In this document: one piece after another, positions 778 to 58,360 of the stretch
How positions within the stretch are numbered: the first letter of the stretch is position 1
How the letters are laid out: every line of letters starts with the position of its first letter
DNA from: Escherichia phage LH2
Strand: one strand, 5' to 3'
Sequence record: OQ378934.1
DNA length: 64,000 bases
Position numbers and translations under genes: made by a program
The notes under the pieces: generated by a model
Database searches by the model: none
What the model was told of the DNA's origin: nothing
The model's input: the letters and a program-made list of their open reading frames with translations, nothing else

Positions 778-2365
<1,588 letters not shown>

Positions 2366-2368
2366 GCT

Positions 2369-2398
2369 GTTTACAAGTCCCTCGTGTTGTGTTATAGT
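2369..2398 (+). promoter_or_regulatory. T4 early-type promoter (GTTTAC -35, 18 nt spacer, TATAGT -10) upstream of alc, embedded in an inverted repeat
   Basis: gtttac at 2369-2374, tatagt at 2393-2398; near-identical element repeated at 14886-14915. Confidence 0.5.
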
Positions 2399-2426
2399 AG
2401 ACTTACTGACATAACATGAGGACTTT

Positions 2427-2933
2427 ATGATGGATTTACAGCTTATTACTACTGAAATGGTCGTTGAAGCATACGGTGATACTACAGATGGGATTTCTGT
2501 ATTTAAAGGAAATCGTCGAGTTGGATATATCACCGATCTTAAGAAAGATTTAGCTAAGCAAGTCAAGCGGAAAACGACCATTAAAGAATATCGAAATCGT
2601 CGTCTTGAGCAAGCCCGTGATATGCTTCCTGATGCAGTTGAGGAGATGAAAGTCTTTTTAGAAAATCAGCTTGCGAAATATGATTGTGATGTGTTCATTA
2701 ATCAGACTCAACCTAATGTTCATATCAATAATTGTAAATGCTACATCATCGTTAATCCTTTGACGGGAAAACATCGTCTTGGAATTAGTAATCCAAATCG
2801 TAGCGCATCGGATATGGCAGAAGATGTTGCGGCATGCTTTAAAATTTCTAAATCTCCGGCGGAACATCATATTTTAATTAACGGTCTTTCTCAAGACGAT
2901 ATTATAGAGGTTATTAAAACTTTATGCATGTAA
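2427..2933 (+). CDS. alc: Alc, inhibitor of host transcription (168 aa ORF)
   Basis: Size and position after rnlA as in T4; SD gagga 6 nt upstream; early promoter upstream. Confidence 0.75.
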   Translation: MMDLQLITTEMVVEAYGDTTDGISVFKGNRRVGYITDLKKDLAKQVKRKTTIKEYRNRRLEQARDMLPDAVEEMKVFLENQLAKYDCDVFINQTQPNVHINNCKCYIIVNPLTGKHRLGISNPNRSASDMAEDVAACFKISKSPAEHHILINGLSQDDIIEVIKTLCM

Positions 2934-3277
2934 GTAATTTTACAGCTGGATTGCTATTACTTGTAATAGCATTTGGCGGAACATCTATTATTTTAAAAAA
3001 TAAGGTAGAAAGATTAGAAACATCAGTTACTGAAATTACAAAAACAGCCAATGAAAACGCCTTAGCATTAAATAATTTGCGAATTCAGTATAATTATATT
3101 GATGCGATGAATAATAAAAATCGTGAGGCAATTGCTGCTATTGAGCGTGAAAATGAAAAACTGCGCAAAGATGCAAAGAAGGCGGACGTGGTGGCTCATA
3201 AGCCAGGATTGGTTGAAAAACAAATCAACAAATCCTTCAACAAGTTCGCAGAAGACATCCAGGACCTTTCTAAATGA
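2924..3277 (+). CDS. pseT.3: Small membrane-anchored coiled-coil protein (pseT.3-like), 117 aa
   Basis: N-terminal hydrophobic helix FTAGLLLLVIAFGGTSIIL then charged helical region; start overlaps alc stop. Confidence 0.5.
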   Translation: MHVSNFTAGLLLLVIAFGGTSIILKNKVERLETSVTEITKTANENALALNNLRIQYNYIDAMNNKNREAIAAIERENEKLRKDAKKADVVAHKPGLVEKQINKSFNKFAEDIQDLSK

Positions 3278-19636: not shown

Positions 19637-20756
19637 TTTTAACCTTAACTGGGTCTATTGTTTCCAGTTTCGTTGCATTAGTGAACATATATAGATGAGT
19701 TACTGAATTATTATTGGATAATTCGTGGATAACTTCATCAACGTAAAATTCTGTTTTAAATTGGTTTTTACTATCATTAAAAATAATTTTAACGCCAGGG
19801 GTTAAGTTAAAATTACCGACAGTAGAACATTTAGCATAGCCATCGTATTGTGCCATAGTTTGAAGACGAATAGCTTCTTCATATCCATTCCTATAAGTCA
19901 TTTCAGAATAAGCACCTGACCTTGACACTACAATAGAGTTTTCGCCTTTTCCTGTAGTAATCATTGGCAATGAAGAATCTAAAAATGAATGCGCATAGAT
20001 AGTAGCGTTTTTCATTGGGTCGCGTTTGTGAGGATTCGATTTAGTCAACCAAACGAAATCATATGCTAATGGATATTTTAATTCTTGGATGAATTGACCT
20101 ATTAAAGATGGCTCACCGACAATCATTGGATACGGTTCTTGATTTATCATCATATCATAGTCCATCATGTTAACTCCCATGATGTCTTGCCATACAAATA
20201 CAAATTTGTCACTTCCTACAGCTAGAGCAACTTCTCTGACATACGACAAATAGTTTTCAAATGTACTAGTCCACGGAATATCAGGAACATAAGCATTTAT
20301 AGCATTTATCGCTGGAGTTAATAGCGTGCGGTCTTGATAAATGACACCAAGCATTTCCTTTATAGATTCACCTGCATCAGGGAAAAACGGTCTGCCAAAT
20401 TTAAGATTTTCTATAGAATGAATAGTTCCCAATTCAATAGCAATGATGTTATCACCTTTTGAATCTACTGACACTGAAAAATGCTTACATCCATAAATTC
20501 TTGTTTTAACATTATTAATATCGTTTGCATTAGCTACAGAAATCTGAATTATTTCATTTCCATCCATTTTTGTATGGATATTTTTAGAATCATAAAACTG
20601 CAGCATTCCTTCATTTCGGCCATAAAGAGAATCCCGCATAGTTAATGTTGTAATAGTAGCAGCTAATTCAACAAATCTATTATTACTCCAAGCGTCGTAG
20701 CTATCAAACAATTTAACGCTGAGATTTGGATATCCTGGGCGTTGCAACATACTCAT
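19581..20756 (-). CDS. 27: Baseplate hub subunit gp27, 391 aa
   Basis: Size and synteny. Confidence 0.75.
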
Positions 20757-21505
20757 TATTGTTTATCCTTCTCAATCAGTTTTAATACGAATCCGCGCTC
20801 GGCAGGAATCATTTTCATTATTGAATTTAAGCTATAATTACTTTTTACGAGTGTGTGATTAATTTGATAAAAAGTAAATATCTCATCTGGGTTAACTAAT
20901 AGCTTAAACACATCTACTATATCAGTGTATTTTTTTACATACTTATCACAGCAGGACATGTGTAGCGTTAAATTAATAGGATTCATTGCATCAAGAATTT
21001 TTTCTAATGTTTCTATCTCGATGGCATCAACAAGTTCTATTTGACTTGATTCACTAATTTCCTTCCAATCATACCATGTTTCATCTACTTGAACAGAATG
21101 AATATTTTCAGTAATCATCTTTGCTTTATTTTCATAAAACTCAGAAGGAAACTTTAATTTAATTTTAACATTAGCTACATCAAAAACAGGTTCCTTTAGT
21201 TCTTTTTGATATATTTCAAATGGAACTGTCTTTTCTTTTTTACATTTTGGACATACAAATGTGACCGGTACTTTAGTTTTACCTATTGACCCTACAAATA
21301 CCTGCAAAAATATAAATGGCTGCCAAGTCTTCGGATAGTCTCCAAAATAATCGGCAATTAAATCAGCAATTATTTCTTTTTGTTCTTGTGGTGACCGATG
21401 TTCTATATCGTTTCGAACTAACAAAAAATCTCGATAATCTTCTACCGTAAATGGTTTAAAACGATGAACACCATCTGGTAATTTACAACGAATAATGTTT
21501 GCCAT
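20756..21505 (-). CDS. 51: Baseplate hub assembly catalyst gp51, 249 aa
   Basis: Size and synteny; late promoter upstream. Confidence 0.7.
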
Positions 21506-21522: not shown

Positions 21523-21536
21523 TATTTATAAATATG
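21523..21536. promoter_or_regulatory. Overlapping divergent late promoters (TATAAATA on both strands) for gene 26 (+) and gene 51 (-)
   Basis: tatttataaata: + strand tataaata at 21527-21534; reverse complement of 21523-21530 also reads tataaata. Confidence 0.5.
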
Positions 21537-21555: not shown

Positions 21556-22182
21556 ATGTATGAATACAAATTTGACGTGAGAGTTGGTTCTAAAATAATC
21601 AACTGTCGTGCATTTACTCTTAAAGAATATCTAGAACTTATTACTGCTAAAAAGAACGGTTCAGTCAAAGAGATTGTTAAAAAGCTAATCAAAGACTGCA
21701 CAAATGCAAAAGATTTAAACCGCCAAGAATCAGAACTACTGCTGATTCATTTATGGGCACATTCTCTTGGAGAAGTTAATCACGAAAACTCCTGGAAGTG
21801 CACCTGTGGAACTGAAATACCAACCCATATAAATCTATTACATACACAAATAGATGCACCAGAAGACCTCTGGTATACACTGGGTGACATTAAAATTAAG
21901 TTCCATTACCCTAAAATTTTTGATGATAAAAACATAGCCCACATGATAGTATCATGTATAGAAACAATTCATGCTAACGGTGAAAGCATTCCAATTGAAG
22001 ACTTGAATGAAAAAGAGTTGGAAGATTTATATTCTATCATCACAGAGTCAGATATTGTAGCTATAAAAGATATGCTTTTAAAGCCTACTGTTTATTTGGC
22101 TGTTCCAATTAAGTGTCCAGAGTGTGGAAAATCTCACGCTCATGTAATAAGAGGACTCAAAGAATTCTTTGAGCTATTGTAA
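21556..22182 (+). CDS. 26: Baseplate hub subunit gp26, 208 aa
   Basis: Size and synteny. Confidence 0.7.
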
Positions 22183-22646: not shown

Positions 22647-23060
22647 ATGAGATTAGAAGATCTTCAAGAAGAATTGAAGAAAGATGTGTTTATAGATTCG
22701 ACTAAATTACAGTATGAAGCAGCTAATAATGTGATGTTATATAGTAAATGGCTTAATAAGCATTCAAGTATTAAAAAGGAAATGCTTAGAATTGACGCAC
22801 AGAAAAAAGTTGCTCTTAAAGCTAAATTAGACTACTACTCGGGACGAGGAGATGGTGATGAATTTAGTATGGACCGTTATGAGAAATCAGAAATGAAGAC
22901 AGTTCTATCAGCTGATAAGGATGTTTTAAAAGTTGATACTTCATTACAATATTGGGGAATTTTATTAGATTTCTGTAGCGGAGCTCTTGATGCTATTAAA
23001 TCACGTGGATTTGCTATTAAGCATATTCAAGACATGCGAGCATTTGAGGCTGGAAAATAG
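22647..23060 (+). CDS. uvsY: UvsY recombination mediator, 137 aa
   Basis: MRLEDLQEELKKDVFIDSTKLQYEAANNVMLYSKWLNKH... matches T4 UvsY. Confidence 0.9.
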   Translation: MRLEDLQEELKKDVFIDSTKLQYEAANNVMLYSKWLNKHSSIKKEMLRIDAQKKVALKAKLDYYSGRGDGDEFSMDRYEKSEMKTVLSADKDVLKVDTSLQYWGILLDFCSGALDAIKSRGFAIKHIQDMRAFEAGK

Positions 23061-23071
23061 TGAGGTTAATT

Positions 23072-23185
23072 ATGAAAGAAAATATTAGTAAGATTCTTGA
23101 TGAGATGGTGATTTCTGCTAATCGTATTACGGAAATCGTTAATGAAATGAAAGCCAGAGCAGCTGTTATGAAGGCTAATAAATAG
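23072..23185 (+). CDS. uvsY.-1: Small ORF (uvsY.-1-like), 37 aa
   Basis: SD gagg 6 nt upstream; between uvsY and the next small ORF. Confidence 0.35.
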   Translation: MKENISKILDEMVISANRITEIVNEMKARAAVMKANK

Positions 23186-23209
23186 ATATATAATTCAGAG
23201 GAGACAATC

Positions 23210-23377
23210 ATGTCAGATAAGATTTGTGTTGTCTGTAAAACTCCAATCGATTCTGCATTGGTTGTTGAAACAGACAAAGGTCCTGTACATCCTGGGCCTT
23301 GCTATAATTACATTAAAGAACTACCAGTTTCAGAAAGTTCGGAAGAACAATTAAATGAAACACAACTTTTGCTATAG
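23210..23377 (+). CDS. uvsY.-2: Small zinc-ribbon-like ORF (uvsY.-2-like), 55 aa
   Basis: SD gaggag upstream; CVVC...HPGPC motif. Confidence 0.4.
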   Translation: MSDKICVVCKTPIDSALVVETDKGPVHPGPCYNYIKELPVSESSEEQLNETQLLL

Positions 23378-23400
23378 TGTGACCTTTAGTCTATAGTTTT

Positions 23401-23430
23401 GGCCCTTCCTTTTTGGTTGGGCCTTTTTTT
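23401..23430 (+). terminator. Intrinsic terminator (ggccc...gggcc hairpin + T7 run) ending the uvsY operon
   Basis: G/C stem followed by ttttttt. Confidence 0.55.
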
Positions 23431-23433
23431 AAT

Positions 23434-23676
23434 TTAAAAGCTTTCTTCTACTTCATCGTCTGAATCTTCTAATTCAGCTCTTTTTCCTGCCAAAGCATCT
23501 CTCACAGAGATGTCATCAGTATCTTTTAATTCAGTTTCTTTAACTCTTTTCTTATAATAAGCTTCAAGTTCTTCTAGACCTTCTAATGTTTGGCAAGAGG
23601 CAATTTTACCCATAAATTCATCAATAGAAGCTTCATAAAGAAATTGTTTAAATTCTAGTAACATCTTTTTCTCCAA
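23434..23676 (-). CDS. uvsW.1: UvsW.1 small helicase-associated protein, 80 aa
   Basis: Acidic small ORF directly downstream of uvsW on the same strand. Confidence 0.5.
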   Translation of the reverse strand: MEKKMLLEFKQFLYEASIDEFMGKIASCQTLEGLEELEAYYKKRVKETELKDTDDISVRDALAGKRAELEDSDDEVEESF

Positions 23677-23689
23677 AGGGCCGAAGCCC

Positions 23690-25198
23690 TTATAAATTAA
23701 CTGTTTTCATTACGTAATTAAATTTTTCATCTGCGTAGCGCTGAATACGATCAATGCCGTGTTTTAAAAGATAGTTCAAATGCGAGTATTTTTTAGAAGA
23801 TGTTTTTGATTTAGAAACTACGCCCGCGTCATCTATGAGGTCCCAGACCGTTGCGATTGTTTTAGAACCATGCTTACGTAATACGCGACCTATTGTTTGC
23901 AATACAATAATTTTAGATTTAACACCGTGCGCTAAAACAACGTGATGCAGATTTTTAACTGAAATACCAGTAGAAAATACACCATAACTCGCTACTATAA
24001 TTATTCCTTTACCATTTTCAGCTAAGGTTTTCATTATATTGCGGGTTTCGGTATCAACTTCCCCTGATACGTAATAAACTTTATCGTATTCATTTTTAAT
24101 TAAATCGAAAATAGCTTTACCGTGCGATACATGTTTAAACATGACAAAAGCGTTTTCATCTTTTTGTGCAAGCTTAATAGCTAATTTAGCGATCCATTTA
24201 TTTCTTTTACTGAGCCCAGTAATAATTTTTATTTCTTCTTGGTAAGTTTTTCCCTTTAATTTAGTAGTGAACTCATCGGGATAGCGAAGAAAAATACTAT
24301 TAATTTTTAGCTCAGTTACTTGTCCATCTTCCATTAATTTAGAAGTCGTTACTGGCTTAAATATTTCACCAAACATTCCAACATACTGCATGATATTGGC
24401 TTTGCCATCACGTAATGAACCGGACAAACCAAATTTAAACATGCAGTTATTTAAACCTGATATGATAGATGAAATACTTTTTCCTGTAGCAAGATGGCAT
24501 TCATCATTCATCATCATTCCAAACTGTGAGAACCATTCTTTCGGTTGTTTTACTACAGTTTGCCATGTACCAACAACGACTGGTGCATCATTTTTATATT
24601 TATCATCTTTTGATGCTCCACCACCAATTTTCTTTATCATTGCATGACTGAATAAACGATAGTCAACAAAGTCATCAGCCATCTGAGTTGTCAGAGCAGT
24701 TGTTGGAACAATGATAAGAATTTTACCTTCATAATTTTCCAAATAATATCGAGCAAGCAAAGCTTGAATTAAGGATTTACCTGCGGATGTTGGAAGATTA
24801 AGAATTCTACGACGATTAACTAATCCTTCGAACACTGCATCTTTTTGATACCAATGCGGTTCAATTCTTTTATTTCCTGAATAGATTTCTAATTTAGAAA
24901 GCCATTCATCAAAATCTTTTCTTGATAATTCTTCTTTTTCGTTAATCTGTGGGTCAATCCAGGCTTTATAGCCAAAGTTATCACAGAACTTTTTAATTTG
25001 CCCGACTAAGCCGAATGGAAGAAGACGATTATAATCTAAAAGACGGATTCGTCCATCCCAGTTGCCATATCTGAAGCGAGGATTAAACCTATATCCATCG
25101 GCCTCAAACGAAAAGAAATCTCTTAATTCGTGGAACGTGCTCTCTTCACAATCGATGCGTACATGACTGAAGTCGTGAAAATGTACTTTAATATCCAT
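23690..25198 (-). CDS. uvsW: UvsW RNA-DNA and DNA-DNA helicase, 502 aa
   Basis: Walker A NLPTSAGKS, DECH box, SF2 helicase motifs; matches T4 UvsW. Confidence 0.9.
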   Translation of the reverse strand: MDIKVHFHDFSHVRIDCEESTFHELRDFFSFEADGYRFNPRFRYGNWDGRIRLLDYNRLLPFGLVGQIKKFCDNFGYKAWIDPQINEKEELSRKDFDEWLSKLEIYSGNKRIEPHWYQKDAVFEGLVNRRRILNLPTSAGKSLIQALLARYYLENYEGKILIIVPTTALTTQMADDFVDYRLFSHAMIKKIGGGASKDDKYKNDAPVVVGTWQTVVKQPKEWFSQFGMMMNDECHLATGKSISSIISGLNNCMFKFGLSGSLRDGKANIMQYVGMFGEIFKPVTTSKLMEDGQVTELKINSIFLRYPDEFTTKLKGKTYQEEIKIITGLSKRNKWIAKLAIKLAQKDENAFVMFKHVSHGKAIFDLIKNEYDKVYYVSGEVDTETRNIMKTLAENGKGIIIVASYGVFSTGISVKNLHHVVLAHGVKSKIIVLQTIGRVLRKHGSKTIATVWDLIDDAGVVSKSKTSSKKYSHLNYLLKHGIDRIQRYADEKFNYVMKTVNL

Positions 25199-25200
25199 AA

Positions 25201-25818
25201 TTATGCCTTACTAAATTTGCCTTTAGAGTCTCTTTTCATGAGACGACCTTTAATAAATCCGTCGGGAATAATACCGTCTGGTTGTATTAATTTATTTATT
25301 GCTCCATTATTGACCCAAAAAGTTCCTGTGGTAGTCGGTTTGACTTTACATCCTTTTCTGGACTTTCTATTAAGATGAACCATCCCTTTTACAAATCCTT
25401 CTGGAACAAGTTCTCCAGGTTTAATAAAAATATTTTTAGTTCCATTAGTGTAACAAGTTGTACCTAATACCGTGCCCGGTGAGTTTTCAAATCTCTTAGC
25501 GGAAGATTCTTTCATCTTTGCTATAACCTCTGCAGTCATAACAATTCCACCAATTCCACCAGGTTTCATATTATAATAATTTTTGCTTTTTATTAGTTCA
25601 GGAGTTATAATTTCTTCTTCATACATGTACGCTTCTTCGGAAGTTTTAAACTCTTTTAGTATTGTTCTAGAGAAATTCTTTTCACCATATTTCTTTATAG
25701 CCTGCTGAATTGCCTTACCGGAACCAAGGTAGCCATCATTCAAGTCATCAGTAGAGTGTTTTCCTATATACTTTTTACCATTTATTAGATTTGTCGTTTC
25801 ATATACAAAGTGATACAT
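25201..25818 (-). CDS. segE: GIY-YIG homing endonuclease (SegE-like), 205 aa
   Basis: HFVYETTNLINGKKYIGKH...GYLGSG...EEE...NMKPGG: GIY-YIG catalytic motifs; position between uvsW and hoc region as reported for T4 segE. Confidence 0.6.
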   Translation of the reverse strand: MYHFVYETTNLINGKKYIGKHSTDDLNDGYLGSGKAIQQAIKKYGEKNFSRTILKEFKTSEEAYMYEEEIITPELIKSKNYYNMKPGGIGGIVMTAEVIAKMKESSAKRFENSPGTVLGTTCYTNGTKNIFIKPGELVPEGFVKGMVHLNRKSRKGCKVKPTTTGTFWVNNGAINKLIQPDGIIPDGFIKGRLMKRDSKGKFSKA

Positions 25819-25846
25819 ACTATTTTCCGAGTAATAAATATATCTA

Positions 25847-25854
25847 TATTTATA
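25847..25854 (-). promoter_or_regulatory. Late promoter TATAAATA (minus strand) upstream of the segE-like gene
   Basis: Reverse complement of tatttata at 25847-25854, about 29 nt from ATG. Confidence 0.4.
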
Positions 25855-25867
25855 CTGAGGAAATATT

Positions 25868-26548
25868 ATGATAGATAAAGATTATATTGCAGAGCTGAAG
25901 GCTCTTGATGATAATAAAGAAGCTAAGGCTAAATTAGCTGAATATGCTGAACAGTTTGGTATAAAGGTCAAAAAGAATAAATCTTTTGATAATATCGTTA
26001 TTGATATTGAAGAAGCCCTCCAGAAGCTCGCTAGTGAACCTATGCCAGAGACTGATGGGTTATCTATTAAAGACTTAATCAATGCTGCTGATGCCGCAGA
26101 GGGGTTAAAATATGACGATGAAGAAGTCAATCCAGAGGCAGCACTTCTGATTGATTCTCCGGTTAAATCTGATATTAAAATTGAAGTAGTCGAAACGGAT
26201 AAAATTCCCGAAAATACCGATGTTTTGATTGAAGATACTCCTTTTGTTGAAGAAAAATTCGAACAGGCTATAACTGAGATTATTGAATCTGAAAAGCCGT
26301 CTGTATTTACTCTTCCGGAAAACTTTAGTCCTAATCTTCAGCTGATTGGAAAAAATCCAGGATTCTGCACTGTTCCTTGGTGGATTTATCAATGGATTGC
26401 TGAAACTCCGGATTGGAAATCTCACCCAACTAGTTTTGAACACGCGTCGGCACATCAAACTTTATTTAGCTTAATTTACTACATTAACCGTGACGGATCA
26501 GTTCTAATTCGTGAAACACGCAATTCTTCTTTCGTAACATTAAAATAA
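25868..26548 (+). CDS. inh: Acidic protein, 226 aa; possibly Inh (inhibitor of prohead protease gp21)
   Basis: Position immediately upstream of hoc and size; no catalytic motifs recognised. Confidence 0.4.
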   Translation: MIDKDYIAELKALDDNKEAKAKLAEYAEQFGIKVKKNKSFDNIVIDIEEALQKLASEPMPETDGLSIKDLINAADAAEGLKYDDEEVNPEAALLIDSPVKSDIKIEVVETDKIPENTDVLIEDTPFVEEKFEQAITEIIESEKPSVFTLPENFSPNLQLIGKNPGFCTVPWWIYQWIAETPDWKSHPTSFEHASAHQTLFSLIYYINRDGSVLIRETRNSSFVTLK

Positions 26549-26557
26549 GGATAACTT

Positions 26558-27688
26558 ATGGCTTTTACAGTTGATATAACTCCTAAAACACCTACTGGAG
26601 TTATAGATCAGACCCAGCAGTTTACTGCTACACCCAGTGGTCAAACTGGAGATGGACCTATTACATATGCTTGGACTGTAGATGATGTTCCACAAGATGG
26701 AGCTGAAGCAACTTTTAATTATGTACTAAAAGGACCTGCCGGTCAAAAAACTATTAAAGTAGTTGCAACAAACCCAGTTCCAGATACTGATGCTGAAACA
26801 GCAGAAGCTACTACAACTATCACAGTTCAAAATAAGACACAGACAACTACCTTGGCAGTAACTCCTGCTAGTCCTGCTGCTGGAGTGATTGGAACTCCGG
26901 TTCAATTTACTGCTGCCTTAGCTTCTCAACCTGATGGAGCGTCTGCCACGTATCAGTGGTATGTAGATGATTCACAAGTTGGTGGAGAAACTAACTCTAC
27001 ATTTAACTATACTCCAACTACAAGTGGAGTAAAAAGAATTAAATGCGTAGCCCAAGTAACTGCAGAAAATTATAATGAAAAGGAAGTTACTTCTAATGAA
27101 GTATCACTGACTGTTAATAGGAAGACAATGAATCCACAGGTTACATTGACTCCTCCTTCTATTAATGTTCAGCAGGATGCTTCGGCTACATTTACTGCTA
27201 ATGTCACTGATGCCCCGGAAGAAGCGCAAATTACGTATTCATGGAAGAAAGATTCTTCTCCTGTAGAAGGATCAACTAATGTATACACCGTTGATACATC
27301 ATCTATTGGAAGTCAAACTATTGAAGTTACTGCAACTGTTACAGCAACTGACTATGATAGCAAAACTATTACAGCAGAAGGTCAAGTTCAGGTAACTGAT
27401 AAAGTTGCTCCGGAACCGGAAGGTGAATTGCCTTATGTTCATCCTCTTCCACATCGTACTTCAGCTTATATCTGGTGCGGTTGGTGGGTTATGGATGAAA
27501 TCCAAAAAATGACTGAAGAAGGTAAAGATTGGAAAACTGACGATCCAGACAGTAAATACTACCTGCATCGTTACACTCTCCAGAAGATGATGAAAGACTA
27601 TCCAGAAGTTGATGTTCAAGAATCGCGCAATGGATACATCATTCATAAAACTGCTTTAGAAACTGGTATCATCTATACCTATCCATAA
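26558..27688 (+). CDS. hoc: Hoc, highly immunogenic outer capsid protein with tandem Ig-like domains, 376 aa
   Basis: MAFTVDITPKTPTGVIDQTQQFTATPSGQ...; repeated approximately 90 aa Ig-like modules; length as T4 Hoc. Confidence 0.85.
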   Translation: MAFTVDITPKTPTGVIDQTQQFTATPSGQTGDGPITYAWTVDDVPQDGAEATFNYVLKGPAGQKTIKVVATNPVPDTDAETAEATTTITVQNKTQTTTLAVTPASPAAGVIGTPVQFTAALASQPDGASATYQWYVDDSQVGGETNSTFNYTPTTSGVKRIKCVAQVTAENYNEKEVTSNEVSLTVNRKTMNPQVTLTPPSINVQQDASATFTANVTDAPEEAQITYSWKKDSSPVEGSTNVYTVDTSSIGSQTIEVTATVTATDYDSKTITAEGQVQVTDKVAPEPEGELPYVHPLPHRTSAYIWCGWWVMDEIQKMTEEGKDWKTDDPDSKYYLHRYTLQKMMKDYPEVDVQESRNGYIIHKTALETGIIYTYP

Positions 27689-29300: not shown

Positions 29301-30584
29301 TTATTCATCAACGATAATTTTTGGTAGTTTAACACCTAATAAAACAGACAAATCTGAACGACCCGCCATTTTATCCATGTCTCCACCATCAATTATTCTT
29401 GCTTCTTTTTCATCTTTTGCTACAGTGTAAGGATTTGCAGATAAAGCATATCTAACCAATAAACCGATAGATGGCTGCAAACTTTCTGGATCAACTACAA
29501 CTTTAAATGCACCTACATGTTCAGGGTCATCTAAGTCAAGACCTTCTGTATACGGAGCATAGAAAATTGATCCAACAATTTCTTTTTCGCCAATATTTTC
29601 TACCACACCAACGATTACATAATCTAATGGGCTGTTAGTATCGCAATAAAGCGGTAAACCATTAGCTAAGAACCCGTAGGCATTTTGTGAAAGATATTTA
29701 TCATCTTCTGGTTTATGTTTTAACCAACCTGATGCAGCAAGAATCGCAGCGGCACGAGCTGAAGCAACACAGAACGTTGCTGTATAAGTTGATTCTTTTT
29801 GGATATGCGAAACCATTTCACACACCATTCGATATAATGAACGACCAGCTTCAGGCGCAGATGCATAACTCAAATCAATGAATCCAGTATCAGTAATTCC
29901 TGTAACTTTATAGCGTTTTGACACTGTAATCAAAGACTGCAGAATATCTTTATTGATTTCATCCGCCATTTCAGTTGCAAGCAAATCTTCCAAGAAATTA
30001 GGAGCATCGAATCCATTTGCTTCTAAATCTTGTGCTAATTCAACTGTGATGCCAGTTTTAAGTTTACGAGATTTAACTGCGGTTTGCCATTTATTAATCT
30101 GGAATCTAGCATCCGCAATTTCGCTATCAGAGCTTTCAAATTTGCTTGTTGATGCTGCATCAGAAAATAGACGAACCTTTAAAAGAACAATTGCAATCTG
30201 AAGAGCTAATTCTAAATCGCTTTCTTCAATATCAGCAAATGGTGTATCTTCTAATACTTTATAAACGATATTATTATATTTGAATAAATCGCCTTTATTG
30301 AGAGTTAATTTAGACTCTTCTGTTAATTCTGTGATTTGTTCTCGGTCTACGTACCCAGCTTCGCCAGCGTAAGTAGCACCAGTTTTAAATGTAAATTCGT
30401 TATCTGGGTTAAGGTATTTGATACCATAAAAAGCAGCAACAGGTTGATTAGTTCTTTGCGTTGCTACAATGTCAGAATATATTAATTTAGTGGTAGCGCG
30501 AGTCAAAGCAACGAGATTTGGGCGACCGATTGAGTTGCTATTCGTTGTGGTTGATTCGCGCAGAAGTTCGTTGATTTTAGCCAT
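29301..30584 (-). CDS. 24: Capsid vertex protein gp24, 427 aa
   Basis: Paralog-like similarity to the major capsid protein; size and synteny. Confidence 0.85.
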   Translation of the reverse strand: MAKINELLRESTTTNSNSIGRPNLVALTRATTKLIYSDIVATQRTNQPVAAFYGIKYLNPDNEFTFKTGATYAGEAGYVDREQITELTEESKLTLNKGDLFKYNNIVYKVLEDTPFADIEESDLELALQIAIVLLKVRLFSDAASTSKFESSDSEIADARFQINKWQTAVKSRKLKTGITVELAQDLEANGFDAPNFLEDLLATEMADEINKDILQSLITVSKRYKVTGITDTGFIDLSYASAPEAGRSLYRMVCEMVSHIQKESTYTATFCVASARAAAILAASGWLKHKPEDDKYLSQNAYGFLANGLPLYCDTNSPLDYVIVGVVENIGEKEIVGSIFYAPYTEGLDLDDPEHVGAFKVVVDPESLQPSIGLLVRYALSANPYTVAKDEKEARIIDGGDMDKMAGRSDLSVLLGVKLPKIIVDE

Positions 30585-30611
30585 TGCGCTTTCCTTTTGG
30601 TTTATATGATT

Positions 30612-30619
30612 TATTTATA
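30612..30619 (-). promoter_or_regulatory. Late promoter TATAAATA (minus strand) for gene 24
   Basis: Reverse complement of tatttata. Confidence 0.45.
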
Positions 30620-30634
30620 CCATAAAAACAACTA

Positions 30635-30654
30635 AAGGGACCCGAAGGTCCCTT
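30635..30654 (-). terminator. Intrinsic terminator after gene 23 (aagggacc-cgaa-ggtccctt, U-run on minus strand)
   Basis: Perfect 8 bp stem; A-run on + strand at 30624-30629 gives U-run downstream in the minus-strand transcript. Confidence 0.7.
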
Positions 30655-30667
30655 AAATCGTCAAAGA

Positions 30668-32233
30668 TTAGATACCTTTAACATATACACGGCGGAAGTA
30701 AGCGTTTTTACCAAGGCTATTCAGAATAGAAGGCATACCGCTCTGGATGCGAGAAGCCGGAGCTTGAGCAGCGGATTCTGCAAATGGGTTGATACCGATA
30801 CCGTAACGAGTTTTGAATCCCATTACTGGTTGGAAGTTCTTCGGATCGGAACCACGCAGCGGAGTCAGAGCTACATATGGAGCATAGTAAATACCAGCAT
30901 CCATTTCGTTCGGACCTTTATAACCTACAGTGAAATAATCCTGTTTAGCATACTGGTCGATATATACACGGTATTTACCACCCAGAACACCAGCAAATAC
31001 TGACTTGGTAGTATCAGTGTTAAAGCCGGTAGCCAGACCCTGTGCAGCATAAGAAATGCCAGTATCAACTGAAGCCAGAACGTTAACTACGTTACGGGAA
31101 GCGATAATGAAGTTACCTTCACCACGACCGGTCTGACGAGCAATTTCAACTGCTTCTTTGTCAATCTGGAACAACAGAGCTTTAAAGGATTCACCCGCCC
31201 AGCGAGCACCACGAATATCAATCGGATCCTGGAAGTCAAATACACCAGCTTTAGAACCTGGAGTCAGGGTCATACCAGATTTACCAACCTGAGCCGAGTA
31301 GTTAATCCAATCAACAACTTCACGGTTGATTTCCAGCATGATTTCGGTAGCCAGAATACCAGACAGTTCGGCATCAGCATCCATACCGTGAACAGCGCGG
31401 AGGTCTTGTGCTAATTCGATAGAGTAAGCAGCTTTCAGCTGGCGAGATTTAGCTTCGATAACTTGTTTATCGATACGGAAGCCCATTTCATTCCATGGGT
31501 TATCGGTAGAACCGTTGAAACCTTCCTGGAGTTCAGCGATAGAAGTAGCCATACCTTCAGCGATTTCTACCAATGCACCAGCTTCCATTTGTTTCTTAAT
31601 TTCAGCATCTAATTTAGCTGCATCAGTTGCGCTTGCACTAATTGTTACTTGAGCAGAAGCCTGCAGATACACAGTACCAGTGTCCTGGAAGAAGTGAGTA
31701 TAGATATCACCTACTGTGGTTTCTGTGCTAGCAGCCAGAGCCGGGAATTTCTTAGCAGCACCCTGACCAGAGAACATTGCATCTGGGCCATACATTGGGT
31801 GGAATGCTTCTTTAGCACCGGAAGCGATTGGGTCTTTACCATATACTGCGCGCAGTGCGAATACCTGGCCAGTCGGGCTGTTCATCGGCTGAACACCGCA
31901 AATATCGAAAGCAATCAGGTTAGGAATAGCACGACGTACCATACCCATAACAGCTGGGCCAATCTGAGTTACTGCGCCAGAAGTCTGACCAGCAGCGATG
32001 TTAGTAGCATTGTAACCGTGGTCACCACCGATTTCAGCTTCTGTTAAGAAAGAACCGAACGCCTGAGCGATTTTTTCGTCTTTGTACTCTGGAGCTGTCT
32101 GGAAATCTTTTTCCTGGTTTTCAAAGATTTTAGCGATAATCGCTTGTTTGCTATTAGCAATTTCCGGTAAACCTTCACCTTCCAGTAATGGCTTCCATTT
32201 GTTCAAAAGTTCAGCTTTAGTTTTGATAGTCAT
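30668..32233 (-). CDS. 23: Major capsid protein gp23, 521 aa
   Basis: MTIKTKAELLNKWKPLLEGEGLPEIANSKQAIIAKIFENQEKDFQ... matches T4 gp23. Confidence 0.95.
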   Translation of the reverse strand: MTIKTKAELLNKWKPLLEGEGLPEIANSKQAIIAKIFENQEKDFQTAPEYKDEKIAQAFGSFLTEAEIGGDHGYNATNIAAGQTSGAVTQIGPAVMGMVRRAIPNLIAFDICGVQPMNSPTGQVFALRAVYGKDPIASGAKEAFHPMYGPDAMFSGQGAAKKFPALAASTETTVGDIYTHFFQDTGTVYLQASAQVTISASATDAAKLDAEIKKQMEAGALVEIAEGMATSIAELQEGFNGSTDNPWNEMGFRIDKQVIEAKSRQLKAAYSIELAQDLRAVHGMDADAELSGILATEIMLEINREVVDWINYSAQVGKSGMTLTPGSKAGVFDFQDPIDIRGARWAGESFKALLFQIDKEAVEIARQTGRGEGNFIIASRNVVNVLASVDTGISYAAQGLATGFNTDTTKSVFAGVLGGKYRVYIDQYAKQDYFTVGYKGPNEMDAGIYYAPYVALTPLRGSDPKNFQPVMGFKTRYGIGINPFAESAAQAPASRIQSGMPSILNSLGKNAYFRRVYVKGI

Positions 32234-56106: not shown

Positions 56107-56400
56107 CTATTTAATGAATACTTTAGATGATGCCTGAGCCACAGTATCACCGCATGATATTGGATCAGCCATTTGAACAGCTTTCTTTCCAGTGACATAT
56201 ACCTTAGAAGTTCTAGGTTGTGTCACTCCGCCATGTGTTTCATACGGCTTTTTAATTTCTGTATGTTCTGTAATTGGATCACCTGCTACGAGAACAGCAA
56301 TTCCTCCGGTGAATACTTTACTTTGTGTGGCATTCACAACTGTTGGAGGCCATGCTTCATGGCCAGCAGTAACACACTTATCGTAACTTAATCCTGACAT
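56107..56400 (-). CDS. 5.4: gp5.4, PAAR-repeat spike-tip protein, 97 aa
   Basis: 97 aa ORF immediately upstream of gene 6; Cys/His-containing beta-rich sequence consistent with PAAR fold. Confidence 0.6.
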
Positions 56401-56978
56401 TTATAATACCCCGCTTTAACTCGCCCCTTTAAGGTACTATAATTTATATTAAGAGCTTTAGCTGCGATTTTAATACTTTTATATAAAACGCCGTTGATAA
56501 TAATAGATTTAGCATTAGGGGCTATTTTGCCATACATTGGGTTATTGGCGCCGCACATCTTCGGAGTTTTACCTCTAGGCCCTCTAGGCCCTCTTTTTCT
56601 AGACGATTTAATGCTAATTTTCAATCTAGTTTCACGCGAATGAGATTTACCGTAAAATCCATTTTTAACACCCGCTGTGCTATGTTTTGGGAAGCCACCG
56701 ATACCACCTAGTTTCATATTATAAGTTTTCTCAGATTTAACAAATTCCTCTGTGACTATTTCTGCCTCTGCGTCATACATAGCTTTTTCAGATTCAAAGA
56801 ATTTTATAATATGCTTATAAAAATTATCTATGCCATATTTTTTAATGGCATTTTTAATGGCAACGCCAGAACCCATATACCCATCATCCAAATTTGAAGT
56901 TTTATGGACACCTACATAAATTTTTCCCGTTGTTTTATTAGTTATTGAATACAAATAAAAATATTTATGGCCTCTCAT
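56388..56978 (-). CDS. GIY-YIG homing endonuclease (Seg family, possibly SegC), 196 aa
   Basis: [22 protein letters not shown]...GYMGSG...E...NMKLGGIGG: GIY-YIG motifs plus basic C-terminal DNA-binding region. Confidence 0.7.
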
Positions 56979-57501
56979 ACACGTAGCTTCTCAATTTATT
57001 AGCCCAACGACTCCAATTTCCAACTATAGTTTTTGTGTAATTTTTAACAAGAGTTTTTCTTATTGGAGCTGGAGGATTCGTCGGTTCAGTAGTATCAGAA
57101 GATGACCTAGAATTACTGCCAGAACCTCCAGATTCGCTTTGTTCTTGGTAGTCATATATTAATGTTACTTCGTAAGTGAATGTCTTCTGGAGGTTTTGAG
57201 GAGCTTTCCATAGATATAACTGAGTATTAGAATCAGTTGGAAGGTCTTCCCATGAAGCAGCGGTTTTAAATTCATTATCTAAACGATATTTCAACGCATC
57301 ATTTCCAAATCCAAATACAGATTCATACGTTCCATATAAACGATTTTCTTCTACTAAAACCCCAGGAGTTTCTTCGTAACTAGTTATATTTATAGATACT
57401 AACGTTTCACCTGTTTCTAATTGAGCGGTAAAGGTGACGTCGATAGAAGAACCTTCCATGGATTCTCCTAAATCAGCGCTCATTGGAAGTATATTAGCCA
57501 A
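56965..57501 (-). CDS. 5.1: Hypothetical protein (gp5.1-like), 178 aa
   Basis: ORF between the two GIY-YIG genes; Ser/Gly-rich linker then basic C-terminus. Confidence 0.45.
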   Translation of the reverse strand: MANILPMSADLGESMEGSSIDVTFTAQLETGETLVSINITSYEETPGVLVEENRLYGTYESVFGFGNDALKYRLDNEFKTAASWEDLPTDSNTQLYLWKAPQNLQKTFTYEVTLIYDYQEQSESGGSGSNSRSSSDTTEPTNPPAPIRKTLVKNYTKTIVGNWSRWANKLRSYVYERP

Positions 57502-58360
57502 TTGTTGAATTCTCTAATGATGTAAATTTATAATCACATTTTTTCAACGCTTTTAAAATTGCGTTATAACTTACATCCGGGAGGTCGTGTTCAATTGCTT
57601 TTTCTCTAAACCATTTGTATTTCTGTGGATGTGGTTTTCCCAAATCCTCCCAAAGTTTTTTGACTTTTTCTATACTAATCCAAGGTTCAACTGATCTTAG
57701 TTTTTTATTTCTAGCATCTAATCTCGATTTTCTTATCAAAGGATCATTCCATGATTGTTTCGTTCCTTCTATTTTTCCTGGATGATTGATTAATTTGTTT
57801 CTATATTCATCGGATTTCCATAAAGATTTAACGGTATTAGAAATACGAATTTTTAATGTTGGATCATTTTCAAAAGCAGTTTTCATCGCATTACTCATTT
57901 TCTTTCTATATTCTGGCGATGCGCATCTTTCTTTGTTTATTTTAGATATTTTCTCTGAAAATTCTTTAGTTGACGTTGATTTAGCTAATGCCTTCAATTG
58001 AGCTTTCCTATATTCAGGATTAGACCACATTCTCTTCAAATCTTCGGATGAAAAACCATCACCGCCGGATTTTATATTGGTACATAGAATATCAGATGAT
58101 TTATATTTCGAAATCCAATATCTTTCTCTTGAATTGAGGATTTCATAAGTAGAAACAAATTCAATTATTTCAAAATCTATTTTATAACCAGGTTTATTAC
58201 GTATCTTTTTAATATAATCACCGGAACCTCTATACTTATCATTTTCTAAATCAAAATATCTAGATTCATGTTTACCAATATAAACCCGTACTAATCCTTT
58301 CGGATTAGTAACGGTTGTTTTATATATGTATCTAAATTGAACAGTGTTAGATTTTTTCAT
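57494..58360 (-). CDS. Second GIY-YIG endonuclease-like protein with repeated NUMOD-like C-terminal motifs, 288 aa
   Basis: FRYIYKTTVTNPKGLVRVYIGKHES...RGSGDY...E...NIKSGGDG; C-terminal repeats ...W(S/K)xPEYR(K/N).... Confidence 0.65.
   Translation of the reverse strand: MKKSNTVQFRYIYKTTVTNPKGLVRVYIGKHESRYFDLENDKYRGSGDYIKKIRNKPGYKIDFEIIEFVSTYEILNSRERYWISKYKSSDILCTNIKSGGDGFSSEDLKRMWSNPEYRKAQLKALAKSTSTKEFSEKISKINKERCASPEYRKKMSNAMKTAFENDPTLKIRISNTVKSLWKSDEYRNKLINHPGKIEGTKQSWNDPLIRKSRLDARNKKLRSVEPWISIEKVKKLWEDLGKPHPQKYKWFREKAIEHDLPDVSYNAILKALKKCDYKFTSLENSTIG

Follow-up and report, generated by a model that had tools for sequence, protein, structure and literature searches.

The open reading frame between uvsW and inh in Escherichia phage LH2 is almost certainly segE, the gene of a free-standing GIY-YIG homing endonuclease of T4-type phages. 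It appears to have been inserted between uvsW and a late promoter that already served uvsW, and it is linked to a strongly divergent 5' end of uvsW, which is probably a cleavage-resistant version of its own target. The gene itself is already known, and it was correctly recognised from the sequence in the preliminary description of this DNA. All positions below refer to the analysed stretch of 64,000 nucleotides (sequence record OQ378934.1), which is called the window, and the features are collected in Table 1.

Table 1. Positions of segE, its parts, its neighbours and the associated promoter elements in the window.
Feature	Positions	Strand	Basis or remark
segE coding sequence (205 aa)	25201..25818	-	ORF list; Pfam SegE_GIY-YIG; T4 SegE ortholog
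N-terminal GIY-YIG domain, aa 1-90	25549..25818	-	AlphaFold2, profile alignment, column conservation
Linker helix (aa 96-112) and C-terminal DNA-binding region (aa 113-205), predicted	25204..25533	-	model, I-TevI analogy
C-terminal repeat 1, aa 122-146, CYTNGTKNIFIKPGELVPEGFVKGM	25381..25455	-	predicted beta-hairpin
C-terminal repeat 2, aa 167-192, FWVNNGAINKLIQPDGIIPDGFIKGR	25243..25320	-	predicted beta-hairpin
uvsW helicase gene	23690..25198	-	Pfam UvsW_N, ResIII, DEAD, Helicase_C
Divergent uvsW 5' block linked to segE	25045..25198	-	probable cleavage-resistant target version, co-conversion tract
inh	25868..26548		right-hand neighbour of segE
hoc	26558..27688		one gene beyond inh
T4-type late promoter TATAAATA	25847..25854	-	exact match; common to segE and uvsW
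AATAAATA (7/8), candidate inh-hoc late promoter	25833..25840	+	one-mismatch scan
Perfect 9-bp inverted repeat ATAAATATA-tc-TATATTTAT	25834..25853	none	read from sequence
AATAAATA inside segE, candidate embedded uvsW promoter	25293..25300	-	one-mismatch scan

The identity of the gene was established by comparison with T4. Megablast of positions 24700-26400 matched 561 phage records, nearly all of them T4-like, and the T4 gene under the match is annotated as segE and flanked by inh and uvsW. Pairwise alignment with T4 (MT984581) over 205/205 residues showed that the two proteins have equal length and are identical at 200 residues (97.6%), and tblastn against T4 records gave the same identity. 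In phage phiC600P9 the protein is the same as in LH2 (100% identity). The five substitutions relative to T4 SegE (K47N, A96T, E97D, T120K and L149P) are all located at variable or linker positions, and none falls on a family-conserved column. At the nucleotide level the two genes differ at 13 of 615 positions with a dN/dS of 0.16, and segE appears to be under purifying selection in this comparison. In the profile searches, the product matched Pfam SegE_GIY-YIG (PF19835; E = 5.5e-9, 36.8 bits versus a cut-off of 25) and PHROG 314 'homing endonuclease' (E = 4e-43). The score with the general GIY-YIG model (PF01541) was 21.3 bits, just under its cut-off of 22.6.

Experiments have demonstrated both the nuclease activity and the homing of T4 SegE (Kadyrov 1997, cited in PMC2330249 and PMC2988022). 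T4 SegE is reported to cut the hoc.1-uvsW region of the segE-less phages RB30 and RB52, and its homing is described as almost 100% efficient in T4 x RB30 crosses; it needs the integrity of the gene as well as homology, and flanking sequences are co-converted (PMC2330249). In Table 1 of a review (PMC2988022), segE is entered as a free-standing and active GIY-YIG endonuclease gene with inh/uvsW as insertion site and uvsW as target gene. The two sources word the target differently, as the gene uvsW (PMC2988022) or as the intergenic stretch between hoc.1 and uvsW (PMC2330249). T4's own genome is reported to be cut less well by SegE than the segE-less allele. By analogy, the LH2 allele would be expected to cleave as the T4 enzyme does, from which it differs at only the five residues listed above. 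segE belongs to the cases on which the concepts of intron-less homing and of T-even phage marker exclusion were founded, and its presence here carries little weight as a discovery.

To describe the nuclease domain, an AlphaFold2 model and conservation columns were built on 61 homologs. The mean pLDDT of the model was 84.7, and it reached 93-97 over residues 1-80. The best PDB matches found by Foldseek were structures of the I-TevI catalytic domain (1MK0 and 1LN0; probability 1.00, TM 0.61-0.65 on target), and UvrC GIY-YIG domains stood lower in the list. At the sequence level, I-TevI was reached with the profile of 61 sequences, but not with a single-sequence search of the PDB. The latter search gave a marginal match to a phage tail tube protein (E = 0.002), which was regarded as chance.

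The key residues of the domain are Y6, Y17-I18-G19, H21, D28, Y30, G32-S33-G34, K43, E67 and N83. In the family profile, Y6 aligns with Y6 of I-TevI, Y17-I-G with Y17-V-G, E67 with E75 and N83 with N90; E67 is 97% and N83 100% conserved. The GIY motif is represented by F4-V5-Y6, in which the Tyr alone is retained, and the YIG motif (Y17-I18-G19) is exact. Y6, Y17 and G19 are invariant in the 61 homologs, and the spacing between the two motifs agrees with the usual distance of about 10 residues. The definition of the GIY-YIG superfamily, however, comprises a central Arg and a Glu besides GIY and YIG (PMC1564403). Residues 20-28 of I-TevI, which contain R27, are a nine-residue insertion relative to the SegE family in the profile alignment, and no conserved Arg was found in residues 1-95 of the family (61 homologs). 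The nearest conserved basic residues are H21 (98%) and K43 (100%), both of which belong to a signature of the SegE family itself (H21, D28, Y30, G32-S33-G34 and K43). The preliminary description had attributed complete catalytic motifs to the protein. This is right for Y6, Y17-I-G, E67 and N83, but overstated as a whole, because the superfamily definition includes the central Arg (I-TevI R27) that has no counterpart here. The active-site chemistry is also not simply transferable from I-TevI, since the canonical Arg has no aligned counterpart. SegE can still be placed in the GIY-YIG superfamily on its fold and its other motifs.

The missing Arg could alternatively indicate that segE is a decaying or domesticated relic, which no longer encodes a working homing endonuclease and is kept for its position between uvsW and the uvsW promoter or for an embedded uvsW promoter. 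The ribosome-binding site of segE is indeed weak (GGA about 9-11 nt ahead of the ATG), and embedded promoters are said in a review to favour the retention of such genes (PMC2988022). However, the lack of this Arg is common to the subfamily as a whole; it extends to T4 SegE, for which activity and homing with nearly 100% efficiency are reported. The reading frame is full length in about 158 records at no less than 95% amino acid identity, and the low dN/dS also argues against decay. No mutated catalytic residue was found at the family-invariant positions: all 14 invariant columns are kept in the segE product, together with the near-invariant H21 and E67. Finally, the linkage with a recoded target block, described below, is what an active enzyme would select for. 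A decayed pseudogene was rejected on the full-length frames, the dN/dS and the retained invariant residues, and we consider it highly improbable that segE is a relic of any kind. An intact endonuclease gene is the preferred reading.

The C-terminal half of the protein is probably the DNA-binding part, by analogy with I-TevI. A helix was predicted at residues 96-112 in the AlphaFold2 model, and the family profile gave a weak match to the I-TevI DNA-binding domain (1I3J; E = 0.065) in the linker region. Pfam NUMOD3, which is carried by many SegE homologs, was not detectable in SegE even at E <= 5. Instead, an internal repeat of about 25 residues was seen by eye and also appeared as a self-hit. 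Both copies are predicted to form beta-hairpins, with strands at 121-124 and 129-132 in repeat 1 and at 167-170 and 175-178 (pLDDT 83-93) in repeat 2. Repeat 2 contains a conserved W-x-x-N-G ... I-P-x-G-F-x-K-G-R motif that is also present at the C-termini of HNH endonucleases; W168, G172, P185, G187, G191 and R192 are conserved in at least 90% of the homologs, and PHROG 10820 (HNH endonuclease C-terminus) matches residues 153-199.

segE starts with an ATG at 25816-25818 and stops with a TAA at 25201-25203 on the - strand. On its left side lie uvsW, which is both the putative target gene and the co-transcribed neighbour, and then uvsW.1; on its right side an intergenic gap of 49 nt separates it from inh. 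The gene had been placed between uvsW and the hoc region, which holds for the uvsW side, but the right-hand neighbour is inh and not hoc. A search of 23000-27000 against Rfam (E <= 0.1) gave neither a group I intron nor a match to another family. Both uvsW and inh are uninterrupted, so segE is an open reading frame of its own in an intergenic slot. Together with the orthology to T4 SegE, these results support the view that the gene encodes a free-standing GIY-YIG homing endonuclease. Because uvsW begins 2 nt past the segE stop and its Shine-Dalgarno sequence AAGG lies inside the 3' end of segE (7 nt before the uvsW ATG), co-transcription of segE and uvsW is unavoidable. Translational coupling of the two genes is possible.

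The comparison with segE-less relatives, which the preliminary description had proposed, defined the insertion. segE is present in about one quarter of the related phage records and cleanly absent from the others. It is carried by the roughly 158 records mentioned above, and 447 records have an uninterrupted T2-type junction (coverage of at least 80%). The occupied and the empty allele differ in length by exactly 616 nt. The gene is therefore polymorphic at this site and not a constant feature of all relatives.

The divergence between carriers and segE-less phages extends into uvsW. In a sliding comparison, the block at the 5' end of uvsW showed 10-19 mismatches per 60 nt versus 0-3 per 60 nt in the adjacent part of the gene, and no excess of mismatches was found on the inh side. 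This block of about 150 nt is 25-30% divergent, mostly at synonymous positions, versus about 2% elsewhere in uvsW. The first 49 codons contain 34 nucleotide differences, with five non-synonymous codons, and begin with an indel of one codon. The two allele types are separated by 21 substitutions within their first 84 aligned nt. This corresponds to 75% identity, a divergence as large as that between genera; over nt 151-600 the identity is about 97.5%. The T4-type block was found at no less than 95% identity in 157 records, which matches the number of segE carriers. These results indicate that the block belongs to the mobile unit and travels with segE. It is probably a cleavage-resistant version of the SegE target and at the same time a co-conversion tract.

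Mosaic alleles occur among the segE-less phages. The uvsW gene switches from T2-type to T4-type near nt 85 in vB_EcoM-UFV10 (UFV10) and near nt 115 in UFV-AREG1, so the block has been broken by recombination. At 60-90% identity only, the segE-linked block was found in UFV10 and 31 other records, among which UFV10 was the one examined; its pattern would fit either a loss of segE or a partial co-conversion. All of the empty alleles examined retain the T2-type sequence in the first ~84 nt of uvsW, as would be expected if SegE had its target at the junction or right at the 5' end of uvsW. The presence/absence polymorphism, the linked divergent block and the mosaic empty alleles all support the earlier suggestion that this locus is a likely site of gene exchange.

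The promoter region was compared in the same way. The exact TATAAATA that had been reported 29 nt upstream of segE on its own strand is real, with 28 nt between the motif (25854..25847) and the ATG. The exact motif occurs 20 times in the window versus 9.3 ± 2.7 times in shuffled sequences, so one copy alone is weak evidence, and by count about half of the copies could be chance. The copy upstream of segE lies in a gap of only 49 nt and is invariant in every relative examined from Tequatrovirus, Mosigvirus and Gelderlandvirus; such conservation is far beyond chance.

The window and T4 were then aligned with the segE-less phages T2, UFV-AREG1 and Ac3. Between a point inside inh and the end of TATAAATA-TAGATATATTTATTAC, no difference separates T4, T2 and UFV-AREG1. 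Ac3 deviates at two positions, both within the coding part of inh; over the intergenic stretch the five sequences agree completely. The identity between empty and occupied alleles extends 16 nt beyond TATAAATA. After TAGATATATTTATTAC, the empty alleles have 13 nt (ATGGTATTTAGAC) followed by the uvsW ATG, whereas the occupied alleles have 12 nt (TCGGAAAATAGT), the segE frame, TT and then the uvsW ATG. The T2-type junction reads TATAAATA...TTATTAC-ATGGTATTTAGAC-ATGACTGACATT... and runs into uvsW, and in the segE-less relatives TATAAATA is located upstream of uvsW at about the same distance as from segE in the carriers. The alignment indicates that the late promoter is the pre-existing promoter of uvsW and that segE was inserted between the two. 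It is therefore shared and not private to segE. The preliminary description had segE driven by a late promoter, and both the motif and its position are borne out, but it is common to uvsW and not segE's own.

A stricter view would assign TATAAATA to uvsW only, with segE as a promoter-less passenger of incidental expression, or would deny that the motif is a promoter at all. The motif and its surroundings precede uvsW unchanged in segE-less phages, and the count in the window leaves room for chance copies. However, with the two frames 2 nt apart, a transcript must cross segE before it reaches uvsW, and the question is therefore one of ownership, not of expression. According to a review, the promoter of T4 segE lies in non-coding sequence upstream, and segE is listed among the genes transcribed from such a promoter (PMC2988022). 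No sigma-70-like promoter and no MotA-box (TGCTT) middle promoter was found upstream of segE, and the conservation of the motif across three genera also speaks for a promoter. We consider the stricter view unlikely and prefer a shared late promoter, whose use by segE is suggested by the sequence together with the statement of the review.

On the + strand, the element AATAAATA is located 27 nt ahead of the inh ATG and faces away from the segE/uvsW promoter. The review mentions a late promoter in front of inh (PMC2988022), and this element is a candidate for it. The arms of the inverted repeat (25834-25842 and 25845-25853) form the divergent promoter pair, one arm being TATAAATA. The repeat is identical in segE-plus and segE-less phages and looks like a compact bidirectional late promoter. 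Elsewhere in the window, exact copies of TATAAATA overlap on both strands at 21523..21534, between the divergent frames 20756..21505 (-) and 21556..22182 (+), and form another back-to-back late promoter pair like that at 25833-25854. The same review states that one or more promoters for the downstream gene are embedded in segE (PMC2988022). When the final 230 nt of segE were scanned on the uvsW strand, AATAAATA at 25300..25293 was the sole late-like candidate; it lies about 95 nt ahead of the uvsW ATG and may represent this embedded uvsW promoter.

The left half of the empty site, up to TTATTAC, is unchanged upstream of segE and overlaps both promoter elements. SegE could also be a DNA-binding regulator, which recognises the retained half-site over the bidirectional promoter and tunes segE/uvsW or inh/hoc. 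I-TevI represses its own late promoter, and this kind of autorepression is a documented precedent. However, downstream of the junction the occupied and empty alleles resemble each other no more than AT-rich sequences would by chance. An operator-like similarity between the 5' end of segE and the empty site was rejected, as only about 10/24 positions after the ATG agree (by eye), which is not above the AT-rich expectation. We give a regulatory role a small chance only. A wider proposal would combine promoter half-site binding that modulates the timing of uvsW and inh-hoc with an arginine-less, non-canonical SegE active site, in which H21/D28/Y30/GSG loop or K43 substitutes for the Arg. This proposal is speculative and, in our estimate, rather unlikely. 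The preferred reading is still that of a homing endonuclease gene under a shared late promoter.

The inh-uvsW slot is also occupied in other genera. The Mosigvirus vB-Eco-KMB38 carries there a SegE-like gene of 243 aa (48% amino acid identity), and the Gelderlandvirus STP4-a, a Salmonella phage, one of 211 aa (64%). Both genes have the orientation of segE and the upstream TATAAATA palindrome. The KMB38 protein differs from SegE by its longer linker and by a NUMOD3 motif that can be detected in it. In KMB38, the 5' end of uvsW is 79.8% identical to that of an empty Mosigvirus, versus 97.3% downstream, and Mosigvirus carriers thus seem to show a comparable local uvsW divergence that arose independently. 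Selfish nucleases have landed in the uvsW region repeatedly, in phages of three genera. The locus illustrates how a free-standing endonuclease gene can be slotted between a host promoter and a host gene, and how such a gene brings along a recoded copy of its own target.

Other traces of selfish elements were observed at uvsW. At its 3' end, positions 23755..23874 form a second sharply bounded divergent patch, with 17-25 mismatches per 60 nt versus T4, T2 and Ac3 and 1-4 versus UFV-AREG1. UFV-AREG1 encodes a 230-aa HNH/NUMOD3 endonuclease between uvsW and uvsW.1 (2347..3039 of the compared stretch), and there is a 4-nt overlap between this frame and the uvsW stop. In its appearance the patch resembles a footprint left by some other homing endonuclease, the gene for which is absent from the window. 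In Salmonella phage STP4-a, uvsW is broken right after the helicase motif MMNDEC by an intein-like sequence (CFDGDTLIKTPNG...; 1153..2999 of the compared stretch), which is followed by a frame with NUMOD3 and TnsA-like endonuclease matches, and in the annotation of the record, uvsW is split into separate pieces named 'DNA helicase'. Selfish nucleases of different kinds have a hotspot at the uvsW locus.

One or two further Seg-type genes are present in the window. A second GIY-YIG homing endonuclease gene of 196 aa at 56388..56978 (-) has NUMOD3 and I-TevI-type DNA-binding domain matches and sits between gp5-like and gp6-like frames, the position of the segC slot. A frame of 288 aa at 57494..58360 (-), immediately downstream of the gp5-like gene, matches PHROG 314 (E = 1e-25), and its product has a Seg-like N-terminus (YIYKTT...VYIGKH); no Pfam domain was detected in it. 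It may be a third Seg-type gene in the window. segD, which lies between genes 23 and 24 in T4, is absent here, since merely 83 nt (30585..30667) separate the gp24-like frame (29301..30584) from the gp23-like frame (30668..32233). For annotation it is useful to note that the phage is T4-like but does not have the seg gene complement of T4.

A mechanism of homing can be proposed for this locus. Late in infection, a gp55-type late promoter would give a segE-uvsW(-uvsW.1) message. In a mixed infection, SegE would cut the segE-less allele at the inh-uvsW boundary or the 5' end of uvsW, as described for T4. The C-terminal hairpin repeats and the linker helix would bind the target, and the tethered GIY-YIG domain would make the double-strand break. 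Recombinational repair from the segE-plus genome would then copy segE and the flanking recoded uvsW segment into the recipient. The resident genome would be protected in two ways, by the splitting of the site through segE and by its alteration through the 21 substitutions at the start of uvsW (first 84 aligned nt). In this scheme, cleavage and homing are taken from the T4 literature by analogy, and the DNA-binding parts, the promoter elements used and the basis of self-protection are our proposals.

Among the known systems, T4 segE is the closest. It has the same inh/hoc.1-uvsW slot, orientation and 2-nt spacing to uvsW, as well as the same upstream intergenic sequence, TATAAATA and uvsW 5' allele, and the five residues and 13 nt that differ make no functional distinction apparent from sequence. 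The Seg endonucleases SegB, SegC, SegF and SegG are likewise free-standing GIY-YIG enzymes in intergenic slots, with localized marker exclusion and co-conversion. Their slots, targets and C-terminal modules are not those of SegE; full-length identity is about 33% for SegB-type genes, and the segC-like paralog of the window is 52% identical to SegE over the nuclease domain. I-TevI shares with SegE the GIY-YIG fold, a modular build with the nuclease at the N-terminus and DNA binding at the C-terminus, expression from a late promoter and homing by double-strand break repair. In contrast to SegE, I-TevI is encoded by an intron (T4 td) and its target is the intron insertion site, whereas SegE is free-standing with a target in the neighbouring gene. 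The I-TevI helix with R27/H31 is absent from SegE, and in place of a zinc finger or helix-turn-helix, neither of which was detected in SegE, the protein has two beta-hairpin repeats.
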